Source: Bellilinea caldifistulae | GTDB lineage: Bacteria > Chloroflexota > Anaerolineae > Anaerolineales > Anaerolineaceae | Direction: 5' to 3' | DNA length: 32,000 bases | Assembly: GCF_001306055.1 (NCBI RefSeq) | Contig: NZ_LGHJ01000011.1 | Span: forward strand, 150,001 to 182,000 | Shown here: positions 22,266 to 28,260 of the stretch, piece after piece | How positions within the stretch are numbered: the stretch's first letter is position 1 | How the letters are laid out: every line of letters begins with the position of its first letter | Position numbers and translations under genes: made by a program | Notes under the pieces: model-generated | Database searches by the model: none | The model's input: only the letters and a program-made list of their open reading frames with translations | Told to the model about the DNA's origin: nothing

Positions 22266-23528
22266 TTACGCCCAGCCGCGCAGCCGAACCGCTTCCGCCA
22301 CCCGGCTAACCGCCACCAGATAAGCCGCCTTGCGGTAGTCCACACCGTGCTGCCGGGCAACCTCATGGACCTTCCAAAACGCACCGGTCATGCGCTGGTC
22401 AAGCCGCTGATGCACCTCGTCCTCATCCCAGTAATAGCCGTAGGCATTTTGCACCATCTCAAAGTACGAAACGGTAACGCCGCCGGCGTTGCACAAAAAG
22501 TCGGGCAGCACGACGGCTTTTTTGGCAAACAGCACCGCGTCGGCTTCCGGCGTGGTCGGGCCGTTGGCCAGCTCGGCGATGAACCGCGCCTTGATTCGCT
22601 CGCAATTTTCCTGATGGATGGCGTTTTCCAGCGCGGCCGGAATCAGCACCTGCACATCCAGTTCAAGCAGTTCGGCATTGCTGACCGGCTGTGCGCCGGG
22701 GAAGTTGACCACTGAACCGGTGCGCTGCTTGTGCGCCAGCACCGCCTCGTAGTCCAGGCCGTCCGGGTTGTAAATACCGCCGCGCGAGTCGGAAACCGCC
22801 ACCACCTTGAGTCCGAGCAGCTCAGCGCCCAGTTTGTGGGCAAAAGAACCGGCGTTGCCGTATCCCTGAATGGCGGTCGTTGCGCCGCGCAAATCCACCT
22901 GATGGGCTTTGGCGGCCTCGCGCAGACAGTACATTCCGCCGCGAGCCGTGGCATCCCCGCGCCCGGCCGAGCCGCCCAGCGCCAGCGGTTTGCCGGTGAT
23001 CATCCCAAATTCGGTGTAACCGCGCTGGTAGGAAAACTCATCCACCATCCAGGCCATGATCTGGGGAGTGGTGTACACATCCGGCGCCGGTACATCCGCC
23101 TCGGCGCCCAAAATGCGCCCCACCTGACGAATGTAGGCGCGACTGAGCCGTTCCAGTTCACCGGGAGAAAGCTGCTTGGGGTCGCAGATGATTCCGCCCT
23201 TGCCGCCCCCCAGCGGCAAGTCCATCACGGCGGTTTTCCAGGTCATCCAGGCTGCCAGCGCACGCACGGTATCCACCGTTTCCTCGCTGTGGTAGCGGAT
23301 TCCGCCCTTGCACGGACCGCGCGCATCGTTGTACTGAACGCGAAAGCCTTGAAAAATGCGCACCGTGCCGTCATCCATGCGCACTGGAAGGGTGACATGC
23401 AATTCACGCATCGGCCAGCGCAGCAGCTCATGCACCGCCGCGTCTAATTGCAACAGGCGCGCGGCTTCATCGAGTTGCTGCTGAGCCACCCGAAACGGGT
23501 TATAGGGTTGAGAAGATGAAGCAGACAT
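22266..23528 (-). CDS. gdhA: NAD(P)-dependent glutamate dehydrogenase
   Basis: Contains the PLGGGKGG active-site Lys motif of Glu/Leu/Phe/Val dehydrogenases. The start is ATG 23528, preceded by AAGGAGGAAG; the 20-codon upstream extension in the track is unlikely. Confidence 0.92.
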
Positions 23529-23835
23529 AAAAAACTTCCTCCTTGGCGAAGTAGAATGCTGGCGAATCACCTCTTTTGGAGGTAGCAAACCGATAGGATA
23601 AGTTAAAGTGCAGCGCCGCGAGTCCTCTACGGCGTCTGGGTGATTTGCTCCGCCGGCACAGGCAGAGAACCCTCCCGGCGGCAGCCCTCGCTTGAAATCA
23701 ACGCGTGGGGGGAGTTATTGTAATAATCGGGGCGTGGGGTGAACGGCTAACGGGAACCCGCTGCAACCGTCTAGTGGAAAAACGCAGCAACCAATTACCT
23801 CAAATCCGGACGGTCTGTTTTCAAAAAGTTGGGCT

Positions 23836-23864
23836 ATTTTATATTCATTTCATCCGTTTTGTAA
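23836..23864 (-). promoter_or_regulatory. candidate gdh promoter
   Basis: TTACAA (23864..23859), a 17-nt spacer, then TAAAAT (23841..23836) on the minus strand. If used, the 5' leader is ~300 nt. Confidence 0.3.
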
Positions 23865-23937
23865 AGGGATTGAAGGAAAATTCAGATCATTTTTCCGAAA
23901 AAATCGCTTCGGTTGAATTTTTTTAACCTTTTCTTAA

Positions 23938-23965
23938 TTGACTTTTTCAAAAAACTCACTATACT
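23938..23965 (+). promoter_or_regulatory. sigma70-type promoter for the Met leader and downstream PLP enzyme
   Basis: TTGACT (23938..23943), a 16-nt spacer, then TATACT (23960..23965). An A/T-rich tract lies upstream. Confidence 0.6.
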
Positions 23966-23996
23966 ATGGGGTAATTCCCGTTCAGGTAAACATTCG

Positions 23997-24113
23997 ATGA
24001 CCTTAATTCCTGCAAGCCTGCTGATTGCTCTCTCCCTCATGGCGATGATGATGGCGATGGTCATGCGCGGCCTCATCCAGCAGGCAGCGCTTGCACGGAG
24101 ACGGGTCGAATAA
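23997..24113 (+). CDS. candidate methionine leader peptide, 38 aa: MTLIPASLLIALSLMAMMMAMVMRGLIQQAALARRRVE
   Basis: This is the promoter-distal part of track ORF 23913..24113. There are six AUG codons within nine codons (24039..24065). CAGGCAGC (24081..24088), inside the ORF, is identical to the terminator right arm and so can pair with the left arm. Confidence 0.6.
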   Translation: MTLIPASLLIALSLMAMMMAMVMRGLIQQAALARRRVE

Positions 24114-24146
24114 AAACCGGCTTCTGCATCGCTCATCGTCCACCAG

Positions 24147-24187
24147 CGGGCTGCCTGCAAGGTTCAGGCAGCCCGTTTTTTATTTTT
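24147..24187 (+). terminator. intrinsic terminator (attenuator) 21 nt upstream of the PLP-enzyme ATG
   Basis: CGGGCTGCCTG-CAAGGTT-CAGGCAGCCCG followed by TTTTTTATTTTT: an 11-bp stem with a U-tract. Only the RBS (GGAGG) fits between it and ATG 24209. Confidence 0.85.
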
Positions 24188-24208
24188 CAGTTCCCCGGAG
24201 GTATTCCC

Positions 24209-25456
24209 ATGACACAAACTGTGCCCCTTTCCACCCTGATAGACCTGCTCAACCGGCAACCGGACCCCGAATCATGGGGCGATTCGACCCGTGCCATTCA
24301 TGCCGGCAGCCAGCGCGAAAAACCCTACCACGCCATCATCGAACCGCTGGTACAAACCGCCACCTACACATTTCGCAACAGCGAGGAAGTGATTGCCTAT
24401 CAGGACGCTCACAGCCGCGGCCTGCCCACCGACCGTCTCGAATACGGGCGCTACGGCAACCCGACCATCGCCGCCTGCGAGGCACGCCTGGCCGCCCTGG
24501 AAGGCGCCGAAACCGCCATCCAGTTTGCCAGCGGCATGGCCGCGATTACCACCACCCTGCTGGCCTGTCTGCGCAGCGGCGACCATCTGGTGATGACCGA
24601 CGACTGTTACCGTCGGACGCGCCAGATCTGTCTGGAATTTTTAGCGCGTTTTGACATTCAGACCAGCGTCGTACCCATCGGCGATTACGCTGCGCTGGAA
24701 GACGCCATCCGCCCGAACACCCGCTTGCTGCTCTCCGAAACGCCCACCAATCCCTATCTGCGCGTGCTGGATCTGGAACGATTTTCTGAAATCGCCCACC
24801 GCCATCGGCTGATCAGCGTGGTGGATACCACCTTTGCCACCCCCTTCAACCAGCGCCCGCTGGATTGGGGTGTGGACATCGTCATTCACTCGGCCACCAA
24901 GTATCTGGGCGGTCACAATGACCTTCTGGCCGGCTTCGCTGCCGGCAGCGCCGCGGCTCTGACTCCTGTGCGTGAACTGCACAACATTCTTGGCGCCACC
25001 GCCGACCCGCACAACGCCTACCTGCTGCTGCGGGGCATTAAGACCCTCAGCATCCGGCTGGGGCGCCATAATGAAAACGGGCAACGGGTCGCCGAATTTC
25101 TGGAATCCCACCCGGCTGTCGAGCAGGTCTGGTATCCCGGTCTGCCCTCCCATCCCGATTACGCAGTGGCCAGCGCGCAGATGAAAGGCTTTGGCGGTGT
25201 GGTTTCTTTCACCGTGCGCGGCGGCCTGTACGATACCGCTCGCTTCATTGACCGCCTGCAAATCCCCTACATTTCGCCTTCGCTGGGCGGAACGGAGAGT
25301 CTGGTCATTCAACCGGCACTGATGTCCTACTACGATGTCCCACCGGAAAAACGACAGGCGCTGGGCATCCGCGACAATCTGGTGCGCCTGTCATTGGGGC
25401 TTGAGGATGCCGACGACTTGATCGCAGACCTGAAGCAGGCTCTCGAAGCGTTGTAA
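24209..25456 (+). CDS. Cys/Met-metabolism PLP-dependent enzyme (cystathionine gamma-synthase / O-acylhomoserine sulfhydrylase family)
   Basis: 415 aa with the PLP-lysine signature DIVIHSATKYLGGHND and an N-terminal STRAIHAG motif. The exact reaction cannot be assigned by eye. Confidence 0.88.
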   Translation: MTQTVPLSTLIDLLNRQPDPESWGDSTRAIHAGSQREKPYHAIIEPLVQTATYTFRNSEEVIAYQDAHSRGLPTDRLEYGRYGNPTIAACEARLAALEGAETAIQFASGMAAITTTLLACLRSGDHLVMTDDCYRRTRQICLEFLARFDIQTSVVPIGDYAALEDAIRPNTRLLLSETPTNPYLRVLDLERFSEIAHRHRLISVVDTTFATPFNQRPLDWGVDIVIHSATKYLGGHNDLLAGFAAGSAAALTPVRELHNILGATADPHNAYLLLRGIKTLSIRLGRHNENGQRVAEFLESHPAVEQVWYPGLPSHPDYAVASAQMKGFGGVVSFTVRGGLYDTARFIDRLQIPYISPSLGGTESLVIQPALMSYYDVPPEKRQALGIRDNLVRLSLGLEDADDLIADLKQALEAL

Positions 25457-25469
25457 AACCCTCCCTCGG

Positions 25470-25838
25470 TTGACGTCACCACGAGCGAGCGCGGCAATCT
25501 CCCGCAGGGCCGGGAGGGAGATTTCTCGCTTCGCCCGAAATGACGTTTACGGGTATACGTCACCGCGAGCCGCCGCAGGCGGCGTGGCGGTCTCCGGCAG
25601 GGCCGTTGCGGAGGTTGGGCGGGAGACCCCTCACTCCGTTCGGGGTGACATTAGCTGGTTTACGTCACAGCGAGCCGCCGTCAGGCGGCGTGGCGGTCTC
25701 CGGCAGGGCCGTTGCGGAGGTTGGGTGGGAGACCCCTCACTCCGTTCGGGGTGACATTAGCTGGTTTACGTCACCGCGAGCCGCCGTCAGGCGGCGTGGC
25801 GGTCTCCGGCAGGGCCGTTGCGGAGGTTGGGTGGGAGC
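25470..25838 (+). repeat. tandem array of hairpin-forming repeat units: one divergent ~86-nt unit followed by 2.7 near-identical copies of a 105/106-nt unit
   Basis: Unit starts (TACGTCAC...) are at 25556, 25661 and 25767. The copies differ at only 2-3 positions. Internal stems are GCCGCC-GTCA-GGCGGC, GGTCTCC...GGAGACC and GGTGAC...GTCACC. The array starts 14 nt after the PLP-enzyme stop. Confidence 0.9.
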
Positions 25839-26234
25839 CCTCCCAGCGCGGCACCAAGCGCAGTGCGGTGCAAGTGTCGCTGATGCTCGATAGGACGAAC
25901 AAATTGCCAAAAACTACAATCCTACCGGCAGGCGTTTCAATTCGGCAGGATTTTTTCCATAGAGGACTGCTCTTGCCCTGTGGGTAAGGGAATTTTATTC
26001 TTTGGTGACCGGTCGGCGGGCAGGGAATTCGGCGCGTACAAAGAATGTATAAGGTTAGGGAACCAGAGGGATGTTTTTCCGGCTGGCTGGTGTTATAGTA
26101 ATCTTAGATGCAGGTGGGAAAACACAAGCAAAGGAGACAGCCACACCCATCGCCTGCCGGCAGCTAAAGCGTGAATTATTCGGTAAAAATAATTTTTCGT
26201 CAGGCTGCTCCAATTCAAACAAGGAGTAATCAAT

Positions 26235-27041
26235 ATGACTTCGGAATCAAATGGTCCCCTCGTTGCCGCCGCTGCAGAATTGAAAAAATTTCAGGGGCTG
26301 CGCCGTTTTAACCTGATCATGGGCTTTCTGCACCTGATTCAGGGCATTTTCATGTGGGTAGTCAGCAATGATAGAACCTACCCGATTTTCACCAACTACC
26401 TCACCTTCGACCGGGCAACCTTCACCCTGACACCCAACCCACAATTGCTCTACGAACTACCCTTCGGACCGGCTGTAGCCGTCTTCCTGCTCATCTCAGC
26501 CGTTGCCCACTTCTACCTTTCCACCATTGGCTACCGCCCGTATGTCGAAAATCTGAAGAAGGGCATGAACCCCATCCGCTTTTACGAATATGCTCTCAGT
26601 TCCTCGTTGATGGTTGTGCTGATCGGTATGCTGGTCGGCATCTGGGACCTGGGGACGATGATCGCCATTTTCGGCATCAACGCCATGATGAACCTGTTTG
26701 GCATCATGATGGAAGTTCACAACCAGACGACCACGCGGACGAACTGGCTGGCGTTTATTTACGGCTGTCTGGCAGGTATTGTGCCGTGGATCGTGATTTT
26801 CCTGTACTTCATGGGAGCGGTCAACTCCGGCGACGCCAAACCACCGGCTTTTGTCTACGCCATCGTACCCACCCTGTTTGTGATGTTCAACATCTTTGCC
26901 GTCAACATGGTGCTGCAGTACAAAAAGGTCGGCCGATGGAAGGACTATCTCTACGGCGAACGGGTGTATATCATCCTCAGCCTGGTTGCCAAGACCGTGC
27001 TGGCATGGCTGATCTGGTTCGGCACACTCGCCCCGGTGTAG
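26235..27041 (+). CDS. heliorhodopsin (retinal-binding 7-TM photoreceptor family)
   Basis: 268 aa and 7 hydrophobic segments. Block-by-block similarity to heliorhodopsin 48C12 as I recall it: RFNLIMGFLHLIQ, AVAHFYLS, RFYEYALSSSLMVVLIG, IFGINAMMNLFG, CLAGIVPWIVIFLY, and GERVYIILSLVAKTVLAW with the Schiff-base Lys (K253, codon 26991..26993). SD AAGGAG lies 8 nt upstream. Confidence 0.9.
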   Translation: MTSESNGPLVAAAAELKKFQGLRRFNLIMGFLHLIQGIFMWVVSNDRTYPIFTNYLTFDRATFTLTPNPQLLYELPFGPAVAVFLLISAVAHFYLSTIGYRPYVENLKKGMNPIRFYEYALSSSLMVVLIGMLVGIWDLGTMIAIFGINAMMNLFGIMMEVHNQTTTRTNWLAFIYGCLAGIVPWIVIFLYFMGAVNSGDAKPPAFVYAIVPTLFVMFNIFAVNMVLQYKKVGRWKDYLYGERVYIILSLVAKTVLAWLIWFGTLAPV

Positions 27042-27318: not shown

Positions 27319-28260
27319 ATGAAACGGATGGGGCTAATTGGATTCGGGGCTGTTTTGCTGGCACTTATCCTGCCTGCCCAACCCAGGCAGGTTGTACTCT
27401 CTGTCGCGCCGGCTCAATCCAATCAAACCTCGTTGCGTTTCTTCGGCACGGGCAGCGGCGATATTGACCGGGTTAAGATTCCTCTGGATAATCCACATCG
27501 TTCGGTGGATGTCGGCGGCGATTTCACCATTGAGTTCTGGCTCAAAGCCGCACCCTCGAGTAACCCCAGCCCGTCCTGCCAGGAAAGCGCCTCCGAAGAC
27601 ACCTGGACAAACGGCAACATCATCCTCGACCGCGACATCTTTGGCGACGGCGATTACGGCGATTACGGCATCTCGCTTTACCGCGGTAGGATTGCCTTTG
27701 GTGCGGCGGTGGGCAGTAACCGCCGCACCATCTGCGGAATAAGCGACTTGCGAGATGGTCAGTGGCATCATGTAGCCGTCACCCGCCAGAGCGGGAATGG
27801 GCAGATGCGCATTTTTGTGGACGGGCAATTGCAAAAAACCGAAAACGGACCTGGCGGGAATCTCTCTTATCGGGACGGACGCAATACTTCTTACACGAAC
27901 AGTGACCCTTATCTGGTCATCGCCGCCGAGAAGCATGACTACGACCCCAGCACCTACCCATCCTTCAACGGCTGGTTGGACGAGTTACGCATCTCCAACG
28001 TCATACGCTACACAGCAAACTTTACCCCGCCGAGTATGCCCTTCAACCCCGATGCCAGCACGGTTGCACTTTATCACTTCGACGGTACGCCGGGCCCCTG
28101 TAACGGAACGGTCAGCGATGCTTCCGGTCAGGGCAATAACGGTCAATGCAAGCATGGCGGCACATCCCCAAATCTCGGCCCGCAGTATGTGCTTGACAGT
28201 CCCTTTACCGGTAGTATCATCTATGACTTTAAAATTTACCTGCCTTTGGTGCGCCGCTAA
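27319..28260 (+). CDS. secreted concanavalin-A-like lectin/LamG (Laminin_G_3-type) domain protein
   Basis: 313 aa with an N-terminal signal-like peptide (MKRMGLIGFGAVLLALILPAQP). It has the FTIEFWLK...DGQWHHVAVT...MRIFVDGQL pattern typical of LamG_3 domains. Confidence 0.75.
   Translation: MKRMGLIGFGAVLLALILPAQPRQVVLSVAPAQSNQTSLRFFGTGSGDIDRVKIPLDNPHRSVDVGGDFTIEFWLKAAPSSNPSPSCQESASEDTWTNGNIILDRDIFGDGDYGDYGISLYRGRIAFGAAVGSNRRTICGISDLRDGQWHHVAVTRQSGNGQMRIFVDGQLQKTENGPGGNLSYRDGRNTSYTNSDPYLVIAAEKHDYDPSTYPSFNGWLDELRISNVIRYTANFTPPSMPFNPDASTVALYHFDGTPGPCNGTVSDASGQGNNGQCKHGGTSPNLGPQYVLDSPFTGSIIYDFKIYLPLVRR

Follow-up and report, generated by a model that had tools for sequence, protein, structure and literature searches.

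Classical attenuation by leader peptides is known for Trp, His, Leu, Thr, Ile/Val and Phe. For methionine genes, the textbook regulators are SAM riboswitches, Met T-boxes and proteins of the MetJ/MetR type. The enterobacterial trp, his, leu, thr, ilv and pheA attenuators share a common order of promoter, short ORF with codons for the end product, terminator and biosynthetic gene. Their RNA adopts three mutually exclusive helices (1:2, 2:3 and 3:4). The terminator is more stable than the antiterminator, and the control is kinetic.

Other described systems also share features with the locus discussed here. Mycobacterial cys operons have attenuators made of leaderless uORFs with polycysteine tracts (bioRxiv 10.1101/834739; predicted in PMC1262725). 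Like our locus, they combine a short ORF rich in codons for a sulfur amino acid, ribosome stalling (predicted in our case) and genes of sulfur amino acid metabolism. Their codons, however, are those of Cys, their hosts are Actinobacteria and no conserved intrinsic terminator was found in them (PMC1262725), whereas our locus has a strong terminator and an explicit antiterminator. The only published suggestion of a methionine-dependent leader peptide that we found is 'metL', a proposed ORF in front of metNIQ of Streptomyces lividans TK24 (PMC8079986). It is a leaderless ORF of 29 amino acids with three scattered Met (…CMCRRMCAF), no Rho-independent terminator is reported for it (PMC8079986), and it precedes a transporter operon. 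It was put forward without test or comparative support, and in sequence and architecture it is unrelated to the leaders described below. In the Bacillus cereus group, His-leader attenuators replace T-boxes (PMC2965389; PMC9413887). They set the precedent, outside Proteobacteria, for an attenuator that takes the place of a riboswitch-type sensor at the same gene; there the amino acid is histidine, the host a member of the Firmicutes and the replaced element a T-box, whereas here the amino acid is Met and the counterpart a SAM riboswitch. A Met-codon attenuator is not described in the full-text literature searched, a scope without the comparative survey of Lopatovskaya et al. 2010, and the initial annotation of our locus was likewise aware of none. 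The mechanism as such is already known; the predicted specificity for Met and the phylum, Chloroflexota (Anaerolineae), are new.

The locus lies in 32,000 nucleotides of DNA from Bellilinea caldifistulae (contig NZ_LGHJ01000011.1, positions 150,001 to 182,000), the whole of which is called the window. Very probably, a methionine-specific, ribosome-mediated (leader-peptide) transcription attenuator here controls a gene of the cystathionine-gamma-synthase family. In window coordinates, the pertinent features are:

23938..23965, + strand: sigma-70-type promoter, TTGACT (-35, 23938-23943), 16-nt spacer, TATACT (-10, 23960-23965)
23984..23986, + strand: weak Shine-Dalgarno-like AGG, 10 nt 5' of the leader ATG, of putative function
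23997..24113, + strand: leader ORF, 38 codons plus TAA (24111-24113), encoding MTLIPASLLIALSLMAMMMAMVMRGLIQQAALARRRVE
24008..24030, + strand: segment 1, the anti-antiterminator strand, core GCCUGCUG at 24016-24023; forms a helix with segment 2 around the Met run
24039..24065, + strand: putative regulatory codon run M-A-M-M-M-A-M-V-M, six AUG per nine codons
24077..24098, + strand: segment 2, core GCAGGCAGC at 24080-24088; pairs with segment 1 or with the terminator 5' arm
24080-24088 with 24150-24158, + strand: antiterminator helix P1, seen when the RNA downstream of a ribosome that stalls on the Met run is folded
24092..24128, + strand: hairpin within the antiterminator whose apical loop holds the stop codon of the leader (24111-24113), from the minimum free energy (MFE) fold of 24076-24164
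24145..24187, + strand: intrinsic terminator, stem-loop 24145-24177 plus T-tract TTTTTTATTTTT at 24176-24187
24197..24201, + strand: Shine-Dalgarno sequence GGAGG of the gene; GAGG is invariant in alignment A1, L052/L053 differ at the first G
24209..25456, + strand: presumably regulated gene for a PLP enzyme of the cystathionine-gamma-synthase family, 415 aa, PF01053 (Cys_Met_Meta_PP), E = 7.6e-136

The promoter agrees with the consensus in 10 of 12 positions and is predicted to start transcription near 23972. Both hexamers are invariant across six close relatives, and the 5' UTR behind them varies (alignment A1). Near-consensus promoters, TTGAC(A/G/T)...TATAAT, are found at the equivalent position in L100-L106 and L108. 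A consensus scan of the + strand from 23967 through the leader to the gene detected no second promoter-like site. The terminator stem (5' arm 24146-24157, 3' arm 24165-24176) has 13 bp, nine of them G-C, and a 7-nt loop; the hairpin energy is -24 kcal/mol, and the T-tract ends at 24187, 21 nt before the ATG at 24209. Promoter, strong terminator and 21-nt gap had all been named in the initial annotation; they are indeed there, at the coordinates given. In close relatives the terminator stems are conserved and the loop is variable. Across 11 sequences 94.7% of the stem is paired, three pairs are changed on both sides, and no shuffle reached the covariation score.

The gene product is 100% identical to the Bellilinea caldifistulae protein P0007. 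It stays below every NCBIfam equivalog cut-off, with methionine gamma-lyase as the highest-scoring match. Among solved structures, plant cystathionine gamma-synthase (1QGN/1I41, 2e-115) comes closest; methionine gamma-lyases reach 5e-95. In L008, L101, L103, L104 and L106 the gene behind the ortholog encodes aspartate kinase, and in L103 and L106 aspartate-semialdehyde dehydrogenase comes next. A role in methionine biosynthesis is probable, as supported by the PF01053 match, the plant relative, the operon partners and the SAM-OFF riboswitches of orthologs.

The start of the leader needs a comment. The listed ORF begins with TTG 23913. This codon is upstream of the -35 box, and the frame 5' of ATG 23997 is broken by a 4-nt indel in the close relatives L052/L053. 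TTG 23913 is therefore rejected, and ATG 23997 is the start, as had been assumed initially; the 38-codon ORF with six AUG in nine codons was correctly described. The frame is retained in all relatives. Within the Met run, close relatives differ only at the third positions of the Ala codons (GCG/GCC/GCA), which indicates translation and a reading frame under selection. The N-terminal half of the peptide varies non-synonymously among the same relatives. GG 23985-23986 is invariant within an otherwise variable stretch (alignment A1). The Shine-Dalgarno sequence AGG is weak, which speaks against an attenuator. Searches with the leader peptide gave no Pfam or NCBIfam match. A 48-aa leader query retrieved only six close relatives, all of them syntenic, and is thus uninformative on a wider regulon.

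The accumulation of Met codons is not a matter of chance. At an ATG frequency of 0.0144, six or more in nine codons have P = 7e-10 per nine-codon window. In 465 kb of fetched DNA, read in six frames, every place with at least five Met in nine codons is one of these leaders. For places with at least four Met in nine codons, about 0.11 are expected in the upstream zones and at least seven independent ones are observed (Poisson P = 4e-11). Elsewhere, the window and the fetched loci reach this lower threshold in a heliorhodopsin segment and at scattered out-of-frame places, none of which has the leader layout.

The layout recurs at about 14 distinct loci of orthologs in Anaerolineae and related Chloroflexota, whose gene products are 51-91% identical: a consensus promoter is followed by a short ORF with clustered Met codons, then by an intrinsic terminator and the cystathionine-gamma-synthase-family gene. 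Their divergent leaders (L003, L007, L015/L108, L022, L056, L064 and L100-L106) have clusters of four to six Met in nine codons within unrelated flanking peptide; between lineages such as L007, L015, L064 and L105 nothing of the peptide is conserved outside the cluster. L008, with only three Met in nine codons, is counted as doubtful. In every Met-leader locus a corresponding terminator (-14 to -29 kcal/mol) is located 22-71 nt upstream of the gene; those of L101 and L102 were taken from reading their sequences, not from automatic picking. Met cluster, open frame, terminator and alternative pairing are kept in the orthologous leaders despite the divergence of the remaining peptide and RNA.

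Orthologs that lack the leader have something else in its place. In ten other Chloroflexota orthologs (L006, L013, L014, L019, L021, L026, L055, L060, L107 and L109) the position is occupied by a SAM-I riboswitch (RF00162, 73-91 bits) plus terminator, which implies that the gene is under methionine- or SAM-responsive termination control across the phylum. Among ten orthologs sampled blind, eight had the Met leader and two the SAM-I riboswitch. Like the system proposed here, SAM-I (S-box) acts by premature intrinsic termination when the product is plentiful; its aptamer, however, binds and senses SAM, whereas in the Met leaders a translating ribosome would sense the charging of Met-tRNA. In the window RF00162 has no match, and it would have been detected, since the same search finds it upstream of the ten orthologs. 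The window contains no Rfam match at all at gathering threshold. In the region 23600-24300, E values up to 10 yielded only chance-level matches of miRNAs or frameshift elements to the terminator hairpin. Trp_leader, His_leader, Leu_leader and Thr_leader are absent at both thresholds, and so is any T-box match. No known riboswitch in Rfam thus explains the structure, and similarity to the classical attenuators in sequence or covariance model is lacking.

CAGGCAGC at 24081-24088, 15 nt after the last Met codon, is identical to the right arm of the terminator at 24165-24172 and complementary to GCTGCCTG of its left arm at 24150-24157, precisely as initially pointed out. Once the 3' arm is withheld, the terminator 5' arm pairs upstream in 10 of 10 folded leaders; all ten likewise have their stop codon between segment 2 and this arm. 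The antiterminator gain over shuffles has a combined p of 7e-9 for 14 leaders (individual p 0.003 to 0.6), which overstates independence, because the leaders are partly homologous. A permutation of own versus other terminators for segment 2 gave p = 0.0044. L105 and L056 have GGCUACCC terminators with a matching segment 2, i.e., both partners have changed together. In nine leaders 11-15 nt separate the last Met codon from the start of segment 2, a geometry that we judged with the ribosome footprint size of established knowledge. Across the alignable subfamily the antiterminator helix is 94.9% paired, yet invariant, and for this reason compensatory changes do not occur in it there. Its conservation in this subfamily could also reflect a conserved Q-A-A peptide.

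Segment 1 (24008-24030), which can capture segment 2 after ribosome release, had been missed in the initial list of elements. The segment 1:2 duplex of the window, 24008-24030 with 24078-24098, has -24.3 kcal/mol, as compared to -15.3 ± 2.9 for shuffles (p = 0.008); the combined p for 10 leaders is 3.6e-5, again an overstatement of independence, as the leaders are partly homologous. The single-sequence shuffle p-values for the pairings are modest. The full-length MFE structure contains the segment 1:2 helix and the internal hairpin 24092..24128. RNAalifold independently predicts the long-range segment 1:2 helix, and several of its pairs are changed on both sides. Like the antiterminator pairing, the segment 1:2 pairing varies in step with the terminator sequence in divergent lineages. 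Compensatory changes, proposed at the outset as a check, are seen in the terminator stem and the segment 1:2 helix, but not, within the alignable subfamily, in the antiterminator helix, which is invariant there. As in the classical attenuators, the three helices are mutually exclusive. An observation in its own right is that the nucleotides for M-V-M-R, ATGGTCATGCG(C/T), are nearly invariant in alignment A2 (10 of 11 sequences; L106 has ATGGCAATGCAT); no pairing so far accounts for it.

From these elements we infer that the leader is translated, that ribosomes stall at its AUG codons, and that a kinetic competition makes read-through dependent on Met. The sequence of events would be as follows. 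The consensus promoter fires, and the transcript begins near 23972. A ribosome starts at AUG 23997 and arrives at the six-AUG run (24039-24065). If charged elongator Met-tRNA is scarce, it would stall within the run with its leading edge just short of segment 2 and thereby keep segment 2 (24077-24098) apart from segment 1 (24008-24030). Segment 2 would then pair with the terminator 5' arm (24150-24158) as soon as the latter is transcribed, building a three-way antiterminator of about -34 kcal/mol; the terminator hairpin would come too late, and RNA polymerase would continue into the gene. With plentiful Met-tRNA, the ribosome would pass segment 2, reach the stop codon inside the antiterminator and block closure of the helix. 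After its release, segment 1 would capture segment 2, the 13-bp terminator with its U-tract would form, and transcription would end 21 nt before the gene.

The classical geometry invoked in the initial annotation is only partly retained in this scheme. A stalled ribosome may well free segment 2. A ribosome at the stop codon 24111, however, has a footprint of about 24096-24125 and does not sit on segment 2 (24080-24088). In trp the stop codon is placed between segments 1 and 2; here it comes after segment 2, within the loop that the antiterminator helix closes, so that a translating ribosome would melt or occupy the interior of the antiterminator. Also, the antiterminator differs from the classical ones in being a three-way junction with an internal hairpin.

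Of course, some findings do not fit easily. The terminator conformation outweighs the antiterminator (the 24081/24150 alternative, whose energy had been proposed for comparison) by 8-10 kcal/mol in every modelled ribosome state, and masked-ribosome equilibrium folding keeps the terminator in the MFE structure of all states. There are two reasons: the model allows segment 1 to pair with segment 2 around the ribosome, and the terminator is the more stable structure. Thermodynamic switching to the antiterminator is thus not claimed, and control must be kinetic, as in trp. That read-through would, in such modelling, depend on a kinetic trap counts against an attenuator, even if trp has the same feature. 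The hydrophobic nature of the leader peptides, which together with a basic C-terminus makes them resemble a small membrane protein, is a further objection, and so is the score of the enzyme below all NCBIfam equivalog cut-offs, which makes any assignment of its exact reaction tentative. Finally, AUG is the regulatory codon and the start codon in one; methionine limitation should therefore slow both initiation and elongation on the leader. By lowering fMet-tRNA, it should cut initiation on the leader, and less initiation would here favour termination. We know of no classical attenuator in which the sensor's own start is coupled to the amino acid that it senses.

How do other readings compare? 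The hydrophobic peptides, often with a basic end (RRRVE in the window, KRKR in L022, GRARR in L003), would suit a small peptide that has a function itself, as a membrane or Met-rich peptide, and a terminator of its own, the gene being served by leak-through or an undetected promoter and methionine not being sensed at all. A source labels the relative P0001 as a membrane protein, and an MVMR...QAA motif is conserved in one subfamily. We nevertheless consider this very unlikely, since the peptide beyond the Met cluster is not conserved between the lineages named above, and its hydrophobic neighbours I, L and V are just one mutation away from AUG. The ORF, moreover, is always tied to the same gene, with the terminator 22-71 nt before the start and no promoter-like site between, orthologs have a SAM riboswitch in that position, and the complementarity of the 3' part of the ORF to the terminator arm would be left unexplained. 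The same riboswitch-bearing orthologs, which place a ligand-binding RNA at the site, can be cited in favour of an undescribed riboswitch or protein-binding attenuator that responds to SAM, Met or a regulator protein, with ORF and AUG run being incidental. Alternative structures do exist, and between Met run and terminator the RNA is better conserved than in the N-terminal coding part. What the lineages share, however, is limited to an open frame with clustered AUG codons, the terminator and the logic of the pairings; no conserved core resembling an aptamer is seen in them, and Rfam has no match. The third-position-only variation in the Met run points to translation instead, and an AUG enrichment of such size has, to our knowledge, no precedent as an RNA-binding motif. 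Again, the probability appears to be very small.

Plant CGS mRNA is controlled by a SAM-dependent arrest peptide, and plant CGS happens to be the closest solved relative of the enzyme. Together with the near-invariance of the M-V-M-R nucleotides in alignment A2, this invites the idea of a nascent-peptide arrest sensor, comparable to TnaC or MTO1 of plant CGS1, in which the exit tunnel is jammed by the Met-rich/MVMR peptide, alone or together with free Met or SAM, and stalling would not be due to uncharged Met-tRNA. It is hardly probable: L003, L007, L022, L056 and L064 lack MVMR yet retain both Met cluster and RNA logic, a similarity to known arrest peptides is missing, and a simple run of codons is what classically marks a sensor of tRNA charging. 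Any stall 5' of segment 2 would free segment 2, and the architecture by itself does not fix the specificity. The element could in principle sense translation-transcription coupling in general, i.e., any slowdown of the ribosome, without methionine being the specific signal. This is extremely improbable in view of the sole feature conserved in all lineages, which is the enrichment of one rare codon, and of the relation to the methionine pathway that the gene shares with its operon partners and with the orthologs under a riboswitch. The attenuator reading, with which the initial annotation had come up, is supported by the comparative data, the pairings and the negative Rfam search.

The locus is probably the first recognised member of a family of Met-specific attenuators that is common in Anaerolineae and exchanges places with SAM-I at the same gene or operon. 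With a Met-codon attenuator, ribosome-mediated attenuation would gain a further amino acid and reach into a phylum that has received little study. Bacteria with the Met leader would gauge the charging of Met-tRNA instead of SAM, and the start of translation of their sensor would itself need methionine as fMet-tRNA, a built-in coupling. How a sensor based on AUG keeps a useful response is the specific mechanistic question thus raised. The natural swap of sensors on one orthologous gene, SAM aptamer versus translating ribosome, allows asking what sensing tRNA charging gains over sensing a downstream cofactor. Bellilinea caldifistulae is a named species and is cultured; the prediction is directly testable. 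There is also a lesson for annotation. Leader ORFs of about 40 codons are now called hypothetical or membrane proteins or are missed entirely; in some relatives the leader is called as a 38-aa protein (P0003, P0004 and P0006).

Upstream of the cystathionine-gamma-synthase-family gene in this window of Bellilinea caldifistulae (Anaerolineae, Chloroflexota) lies a Met-codon leader with a terminator. Reading 23700-24400 recovers, each in its place, all the elements of the initial annotation, i.e., promoter, ORF, Met run, repeat, terminator and a 21-nt gap, and the leader is thereby confirmed.

Elements of the leader and the putatively regulated gene in the window
23938-23965, plus strand: promoter TTGACT-16-TATACT, 10/12 consensus positions, top-scoring plus-strand site within 23400-25700
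23997 (ATG) to 24111-24113 (TAA), plus strand: leader ORF MTLIPASLLIALSLMAMMMAMVMRGLIQQAALARRRVE, read from 23700-24400
24039-24065, plus strand: Met run M-A-M-M-M-A-M-V-M, from the sequence
24081-24088, plus strand: CAGGCAGC, 15 nt past the last Met codon
24145-24187, plus strand: terminator, 13 bp (9 G-C), 7-nt loop, tail TTTTTTATTTTT; hairpin energy -24 kcal/mol
24209 (ATG), plus strand: gene of a PF01053 enzyme of 415 aa, by profile match

The element CAGGCAGC (24081-24088) is the same sequence as 24165-24172 in the 3' arm of the terminator and the complement of GCTGCCTG at 24150-24157. From the end of the terminator to the gene's ATG there are 21 nt, and a consensus scan detects no further promoter-like site between leader and gene. 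The leader promoter shares a 350-nt intergenic region with a divergent glutamate dehydrogenase gene (22266-23588, minus strand; 611 bits with the GdhA_Arch model, under its 750-bit cut-off), and this region also contains a minus-strand promoter-like site at 23865-23836.

The Met run is hardly accidental. The ATG trinucleotide frequency of the fetched DNA, 0.0144, yields a probability of ~7e-10 for at least six Met codons per window of nine. In a scan of six frames of the window and 89 fetched loci (465 kb in total), all places with at least five Met in nine codons are short ORFs that directly precede an ortholog of this gene and share its orientation. At a threshold of at least four in nine, the background is ~10 places per 930 kb of strand-specific sequence, i.e., ~0.11 expected in the upstream zones, where at least seven independent lineages are observed (Poisson P = 4e-11).

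Orthologs were taken from a genome-collection scan, a metagenome scan and the contigs of ten more orthologs, the last being picked solely on contig size and 63-81% identity, blind to leader type. They fall into four classes.

Leader classes among the ortholog loci
Class (a), Met-rich leader and terminator:
close group L001, L049-L053, L090-L099: LMAMMMAMVM
L100: VMAMGMMAMVMRR
L101: LMMLMGMMSMVMR
L102: NMSMMMEMVMR
L103: MMGTMTTMVMR
L104: AMMMVMLAMVMRR
L105: KMMSMLMAMVMR
L106: GMMMSMAMH
L003: MMNAWMIWM...MSIMIM
L007 (= L057): IMLNMMAMSM
L015 and L108: MVPMMAM
L022: SMMMRM
L056: IMMMGMMM
L064: MMIGMMEMMM
L008: doubtful member
Class (b), SAM-I riboswitch RF00162 (73-91 bits) and terminator at the equivalent position: L006, L013, L014, L019, L021, L026, L055, L060, L107, L109
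Class (c), gene within an operon, preceded by a ThrC-like PALP gene: L010, L012
Class (d), no leader recognised: remaining orthologs

Eight of the ten blindly chosen orthologs belong to class (a), two to class (b). Wherever the sequence of a class (a) locus was followed upstream as far as the promoter, the latter is near-consensus and stands just 5' of the leader. All class (a) loci have the terminator (-14 to -29 kcal/mol, 22-71 nt 5' of the gene). The comparison thus bears out the initial annotation: Met cluster and terminator recur in divergent lineages, though their leader peptides are otherwise unrelated.

Two other arrangements deserve mention. The Thermoflexus-type locus L107 has two SAM-I matches of equal score (74.2 bits) ~1.1 kb apart, at 99-243 and 1180-1324, which suggests either duplication of the segment with the riboswitch or another regulated gene farther upstream. 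L011 and L016 have another conserved 5' leader in common (2830-2990 in each), with a promoter TTGACAAAAC...GTGTTATCAT and then a long hairpin GCGACGAAGCCTCTTCTTGCACCACA..GGTGTGGGGAGAGGCTTCGTGCGC. Within these coordinates there is no Met-rich ORF, SAM-I match or significant Rfam match; possibly the gene has here a third kind of regulatory RNA, as yet undescribed.

In the alignment of the close group, the promoter hexamers do not change; variation is seen in the 5' UTR and in the N-terminal half of the peptide. Within the Met run, only the wobble base of the two Ala codons differs (GCG/GCC/GCA). All sequences have identical terminator stems, but each has a loop of its own; a 4-nt indel just 5' of the ATG disrupts any longer frame. 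In the alignable subfamily of 11 sequences, the stretch ATGGTCATGCG(C/T), which encodes the M-V-M-R closing the Met run (window 24057-24068; alignment columns 53-64), is almost invariant at the nucleotide level in 10/11, the exception being L106 with ATGGCAATGCAT, although the enzymes share only 65-91% identity. The three main helices do not explain this conservation; RNAalifold pairs part of the stretch locally.

The full-length leader folds (-77.8 kcal/mol, z = -2.0) into a helix of 24016-24023 with 24078-24085 around the Met run, an internal hairpin and the terminator. If folding is restricted to the RNA beyond a ribosome stalled at the last Met codons and the terminator 3' arm is left out, the 5' arm pairs with 24080-24088, the core of segment 2 (24077-24098). 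This antiterminator is a three-way junction of -34.3 kcal/mol versus -24.0 for the terminator hairpin, and its internal hairpin (24092-24128) carries the leader stop codon in the apical loop. All ten leaders folded share this arrangement: segment 2 belongs to the 3' portion of the ORF, and the stop codon falls within the antiterminator. In nine leaders segment 2 starts 11-15 nt past the last Met codon, which is where a ribosome holding that codon in its A site should have its leading edge.

The energy gain from 5'-arm pairing exceeds that of dinucleotide shuffles of the upstream RNA, with p values between 0.003 and 0.6 for single leaders; combination by Fisher's method gives 4e-6 for 8 leaders and 7e-9 for 14, values that overstate independence, the leaders being partly homologous. 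Permuting each leader against the terminators of the others gives p = 0.0044, driven by L105 and L056, which have GGCUACCC-type terminators; their segments 2 (GGUGCGGGUUGCC, GGUGUGGGAAGC) fit these, not the GGCAGC type. Pairing of segment 2 with segment 1 (24008-24030, the anti-antiterminator strand) amounts to -24.3 in the window versus -15.3 +/- 2.9 in shuffles (p = 0.008; combined p = 3.6e-5). Unguided RNAalifold of the 11 sequences returns the terminator and the long-range helix around the Met run, both partners being changed in several pairs. Pair counts on the same sequences give 94.7% pairing for the terminator, with three pairs changed on both sides and a covariation score reached by no shuffle. 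The antiterminator helix, 94.9% paired, is invariant and therefore yields no covariation.

The folds support the alternative pairing that the initial annotation had proposed, but masking a ribosome onto the first Met codon, the last one or the stop codon never removes the terminator from the minimum free energy structure, its conformation being 8-10 kcal/mol more stable than the antiterminator one. It follows that regulation has to be kinetic. Since the polymerase makes segment 2 and the 5' arm ahead of the 3' arm, the antiterminator would form first, and it would have to last while the polymerase passes the U-tract. The earlier idea that a translating ribosome covers segment 2 holds in transit only; at the stop codon it would cover ~24096-24125, off segment 2. 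More likely, it would then block by occupying the loop to be closed by the antiterminator helix, and after its release segment 1 would take segment 2 back.

The best-supported reading, and quite probably the correct one, is a methionine-specific leader-peptide attenuator of the classical four-segment type, for which both the comparative and the structural computations speak. Of course, the ORF might encode a functional small membrane peptide, or the RNA be an unrecognised riboswitch; the leader might also sense nascent-peptide arrest or, non-specifically, coupling. We rate each of these four as very improbable, because the AUG cluster in an open frame is the sole sequence feature that all lineages have in common; besides it, they share the placing of segment 2 and the complementarity of this segment to whichever terminator follows. 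As to known riboswitches, the Rfam scan gave no covariance-model match explaining the leader.

The regulatory logic is that of the trp, his, leu, thr, ilv and phe attenuators, but the stop codon is placed differently, and the Rfam covariance models of those leaders find no match in the Bellilinea leader. Control of the E. coli trp attenuator is likewise kinetic, as required here. The full-text literature searched describes no Met-codon attenuator, though an earlier description is possible in the extensive subscription literature beyond it. Seliverstov et al. (2005; PMC1262725) found no conserved RNA regulatory structure in methionine operons of Actinobacteria, and the sensor swaps documented by Naville and Gautheret (2010; PMC2965389) include none for methionine. 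The sole published suggestion found is the 'metL' ORF 5' of metNIQ in Streptomyces lividans (PMC8079986), a proposal only, with three scattered Met and no terminator. As far as could be determined, the novelty lies in the specificity for Met, in the phylum and in the exchange with SAM-I riboswitches; the mechanism itself is familiar.

The regulated enzyme is 100% identical to a B. caldifistulae protein. Its best-scoring family models are those of methionine gamma-lyase and cystathionine gamma-synthase, all under equivalog cut-offs; of the solved structures, that of the plant cystathionine gamma-synthase clearly matches best (2e-115 versus 5e-95 for methionine gamma-lyases). A SAM-I riboswitch with a terminator turns its gene off at high SAM. 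Its occurrence on orthologs thus points to a biosynthetic role of the gene, and induction by Met-tRNA shortage would therefore be physiologically sensible. Aspartate kinase follows the ortholog in L008, L101, L103, L104 and L106, and then aspartate-semialdehyde dehydrogenase in L103 and L106; in L014 the 3' neighbour encodes a class I/II aminotransferase-fold enzyme. In L010 (1619-2962) and L012 (1379-2959), more distant orthologs whose MAGs bear the labels Rokubacteria and (implausibly) Klebsiella, the gene of the ThrC-like PALP enzyme stands immediately before the enzyme gene and overlaps it. This partner and the similarity to the plant enzyme hint at an O-phosphohomoserine-dependent route.

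Directly 3' of the regulated gene, the window contains a tandem array (25489-25893) of ~4 copies of a G+C-rich unit of 105-106 nt; the inner copies are 97-98% identical, and the core GGCGTGGCGGTCTCCGGCAGGGCCGTTGCGGAGGTTGGG occurs exactly three times there and nowhere else in the window. A heliorhodopsin gene (26235-27041; NF038020, 378.6 bits; PF18761) and then a Laminin_G_3 protein gene (27319-28260) follow. In close relatives a LamG-domain gene begins immediately after the enzyme gene, in place of the array, and the order is enzyme gene, LamG, (DUF2200), heliorhodopsin. The differing order indicates a local rearrangement in the window, which coincides with the tandem array.
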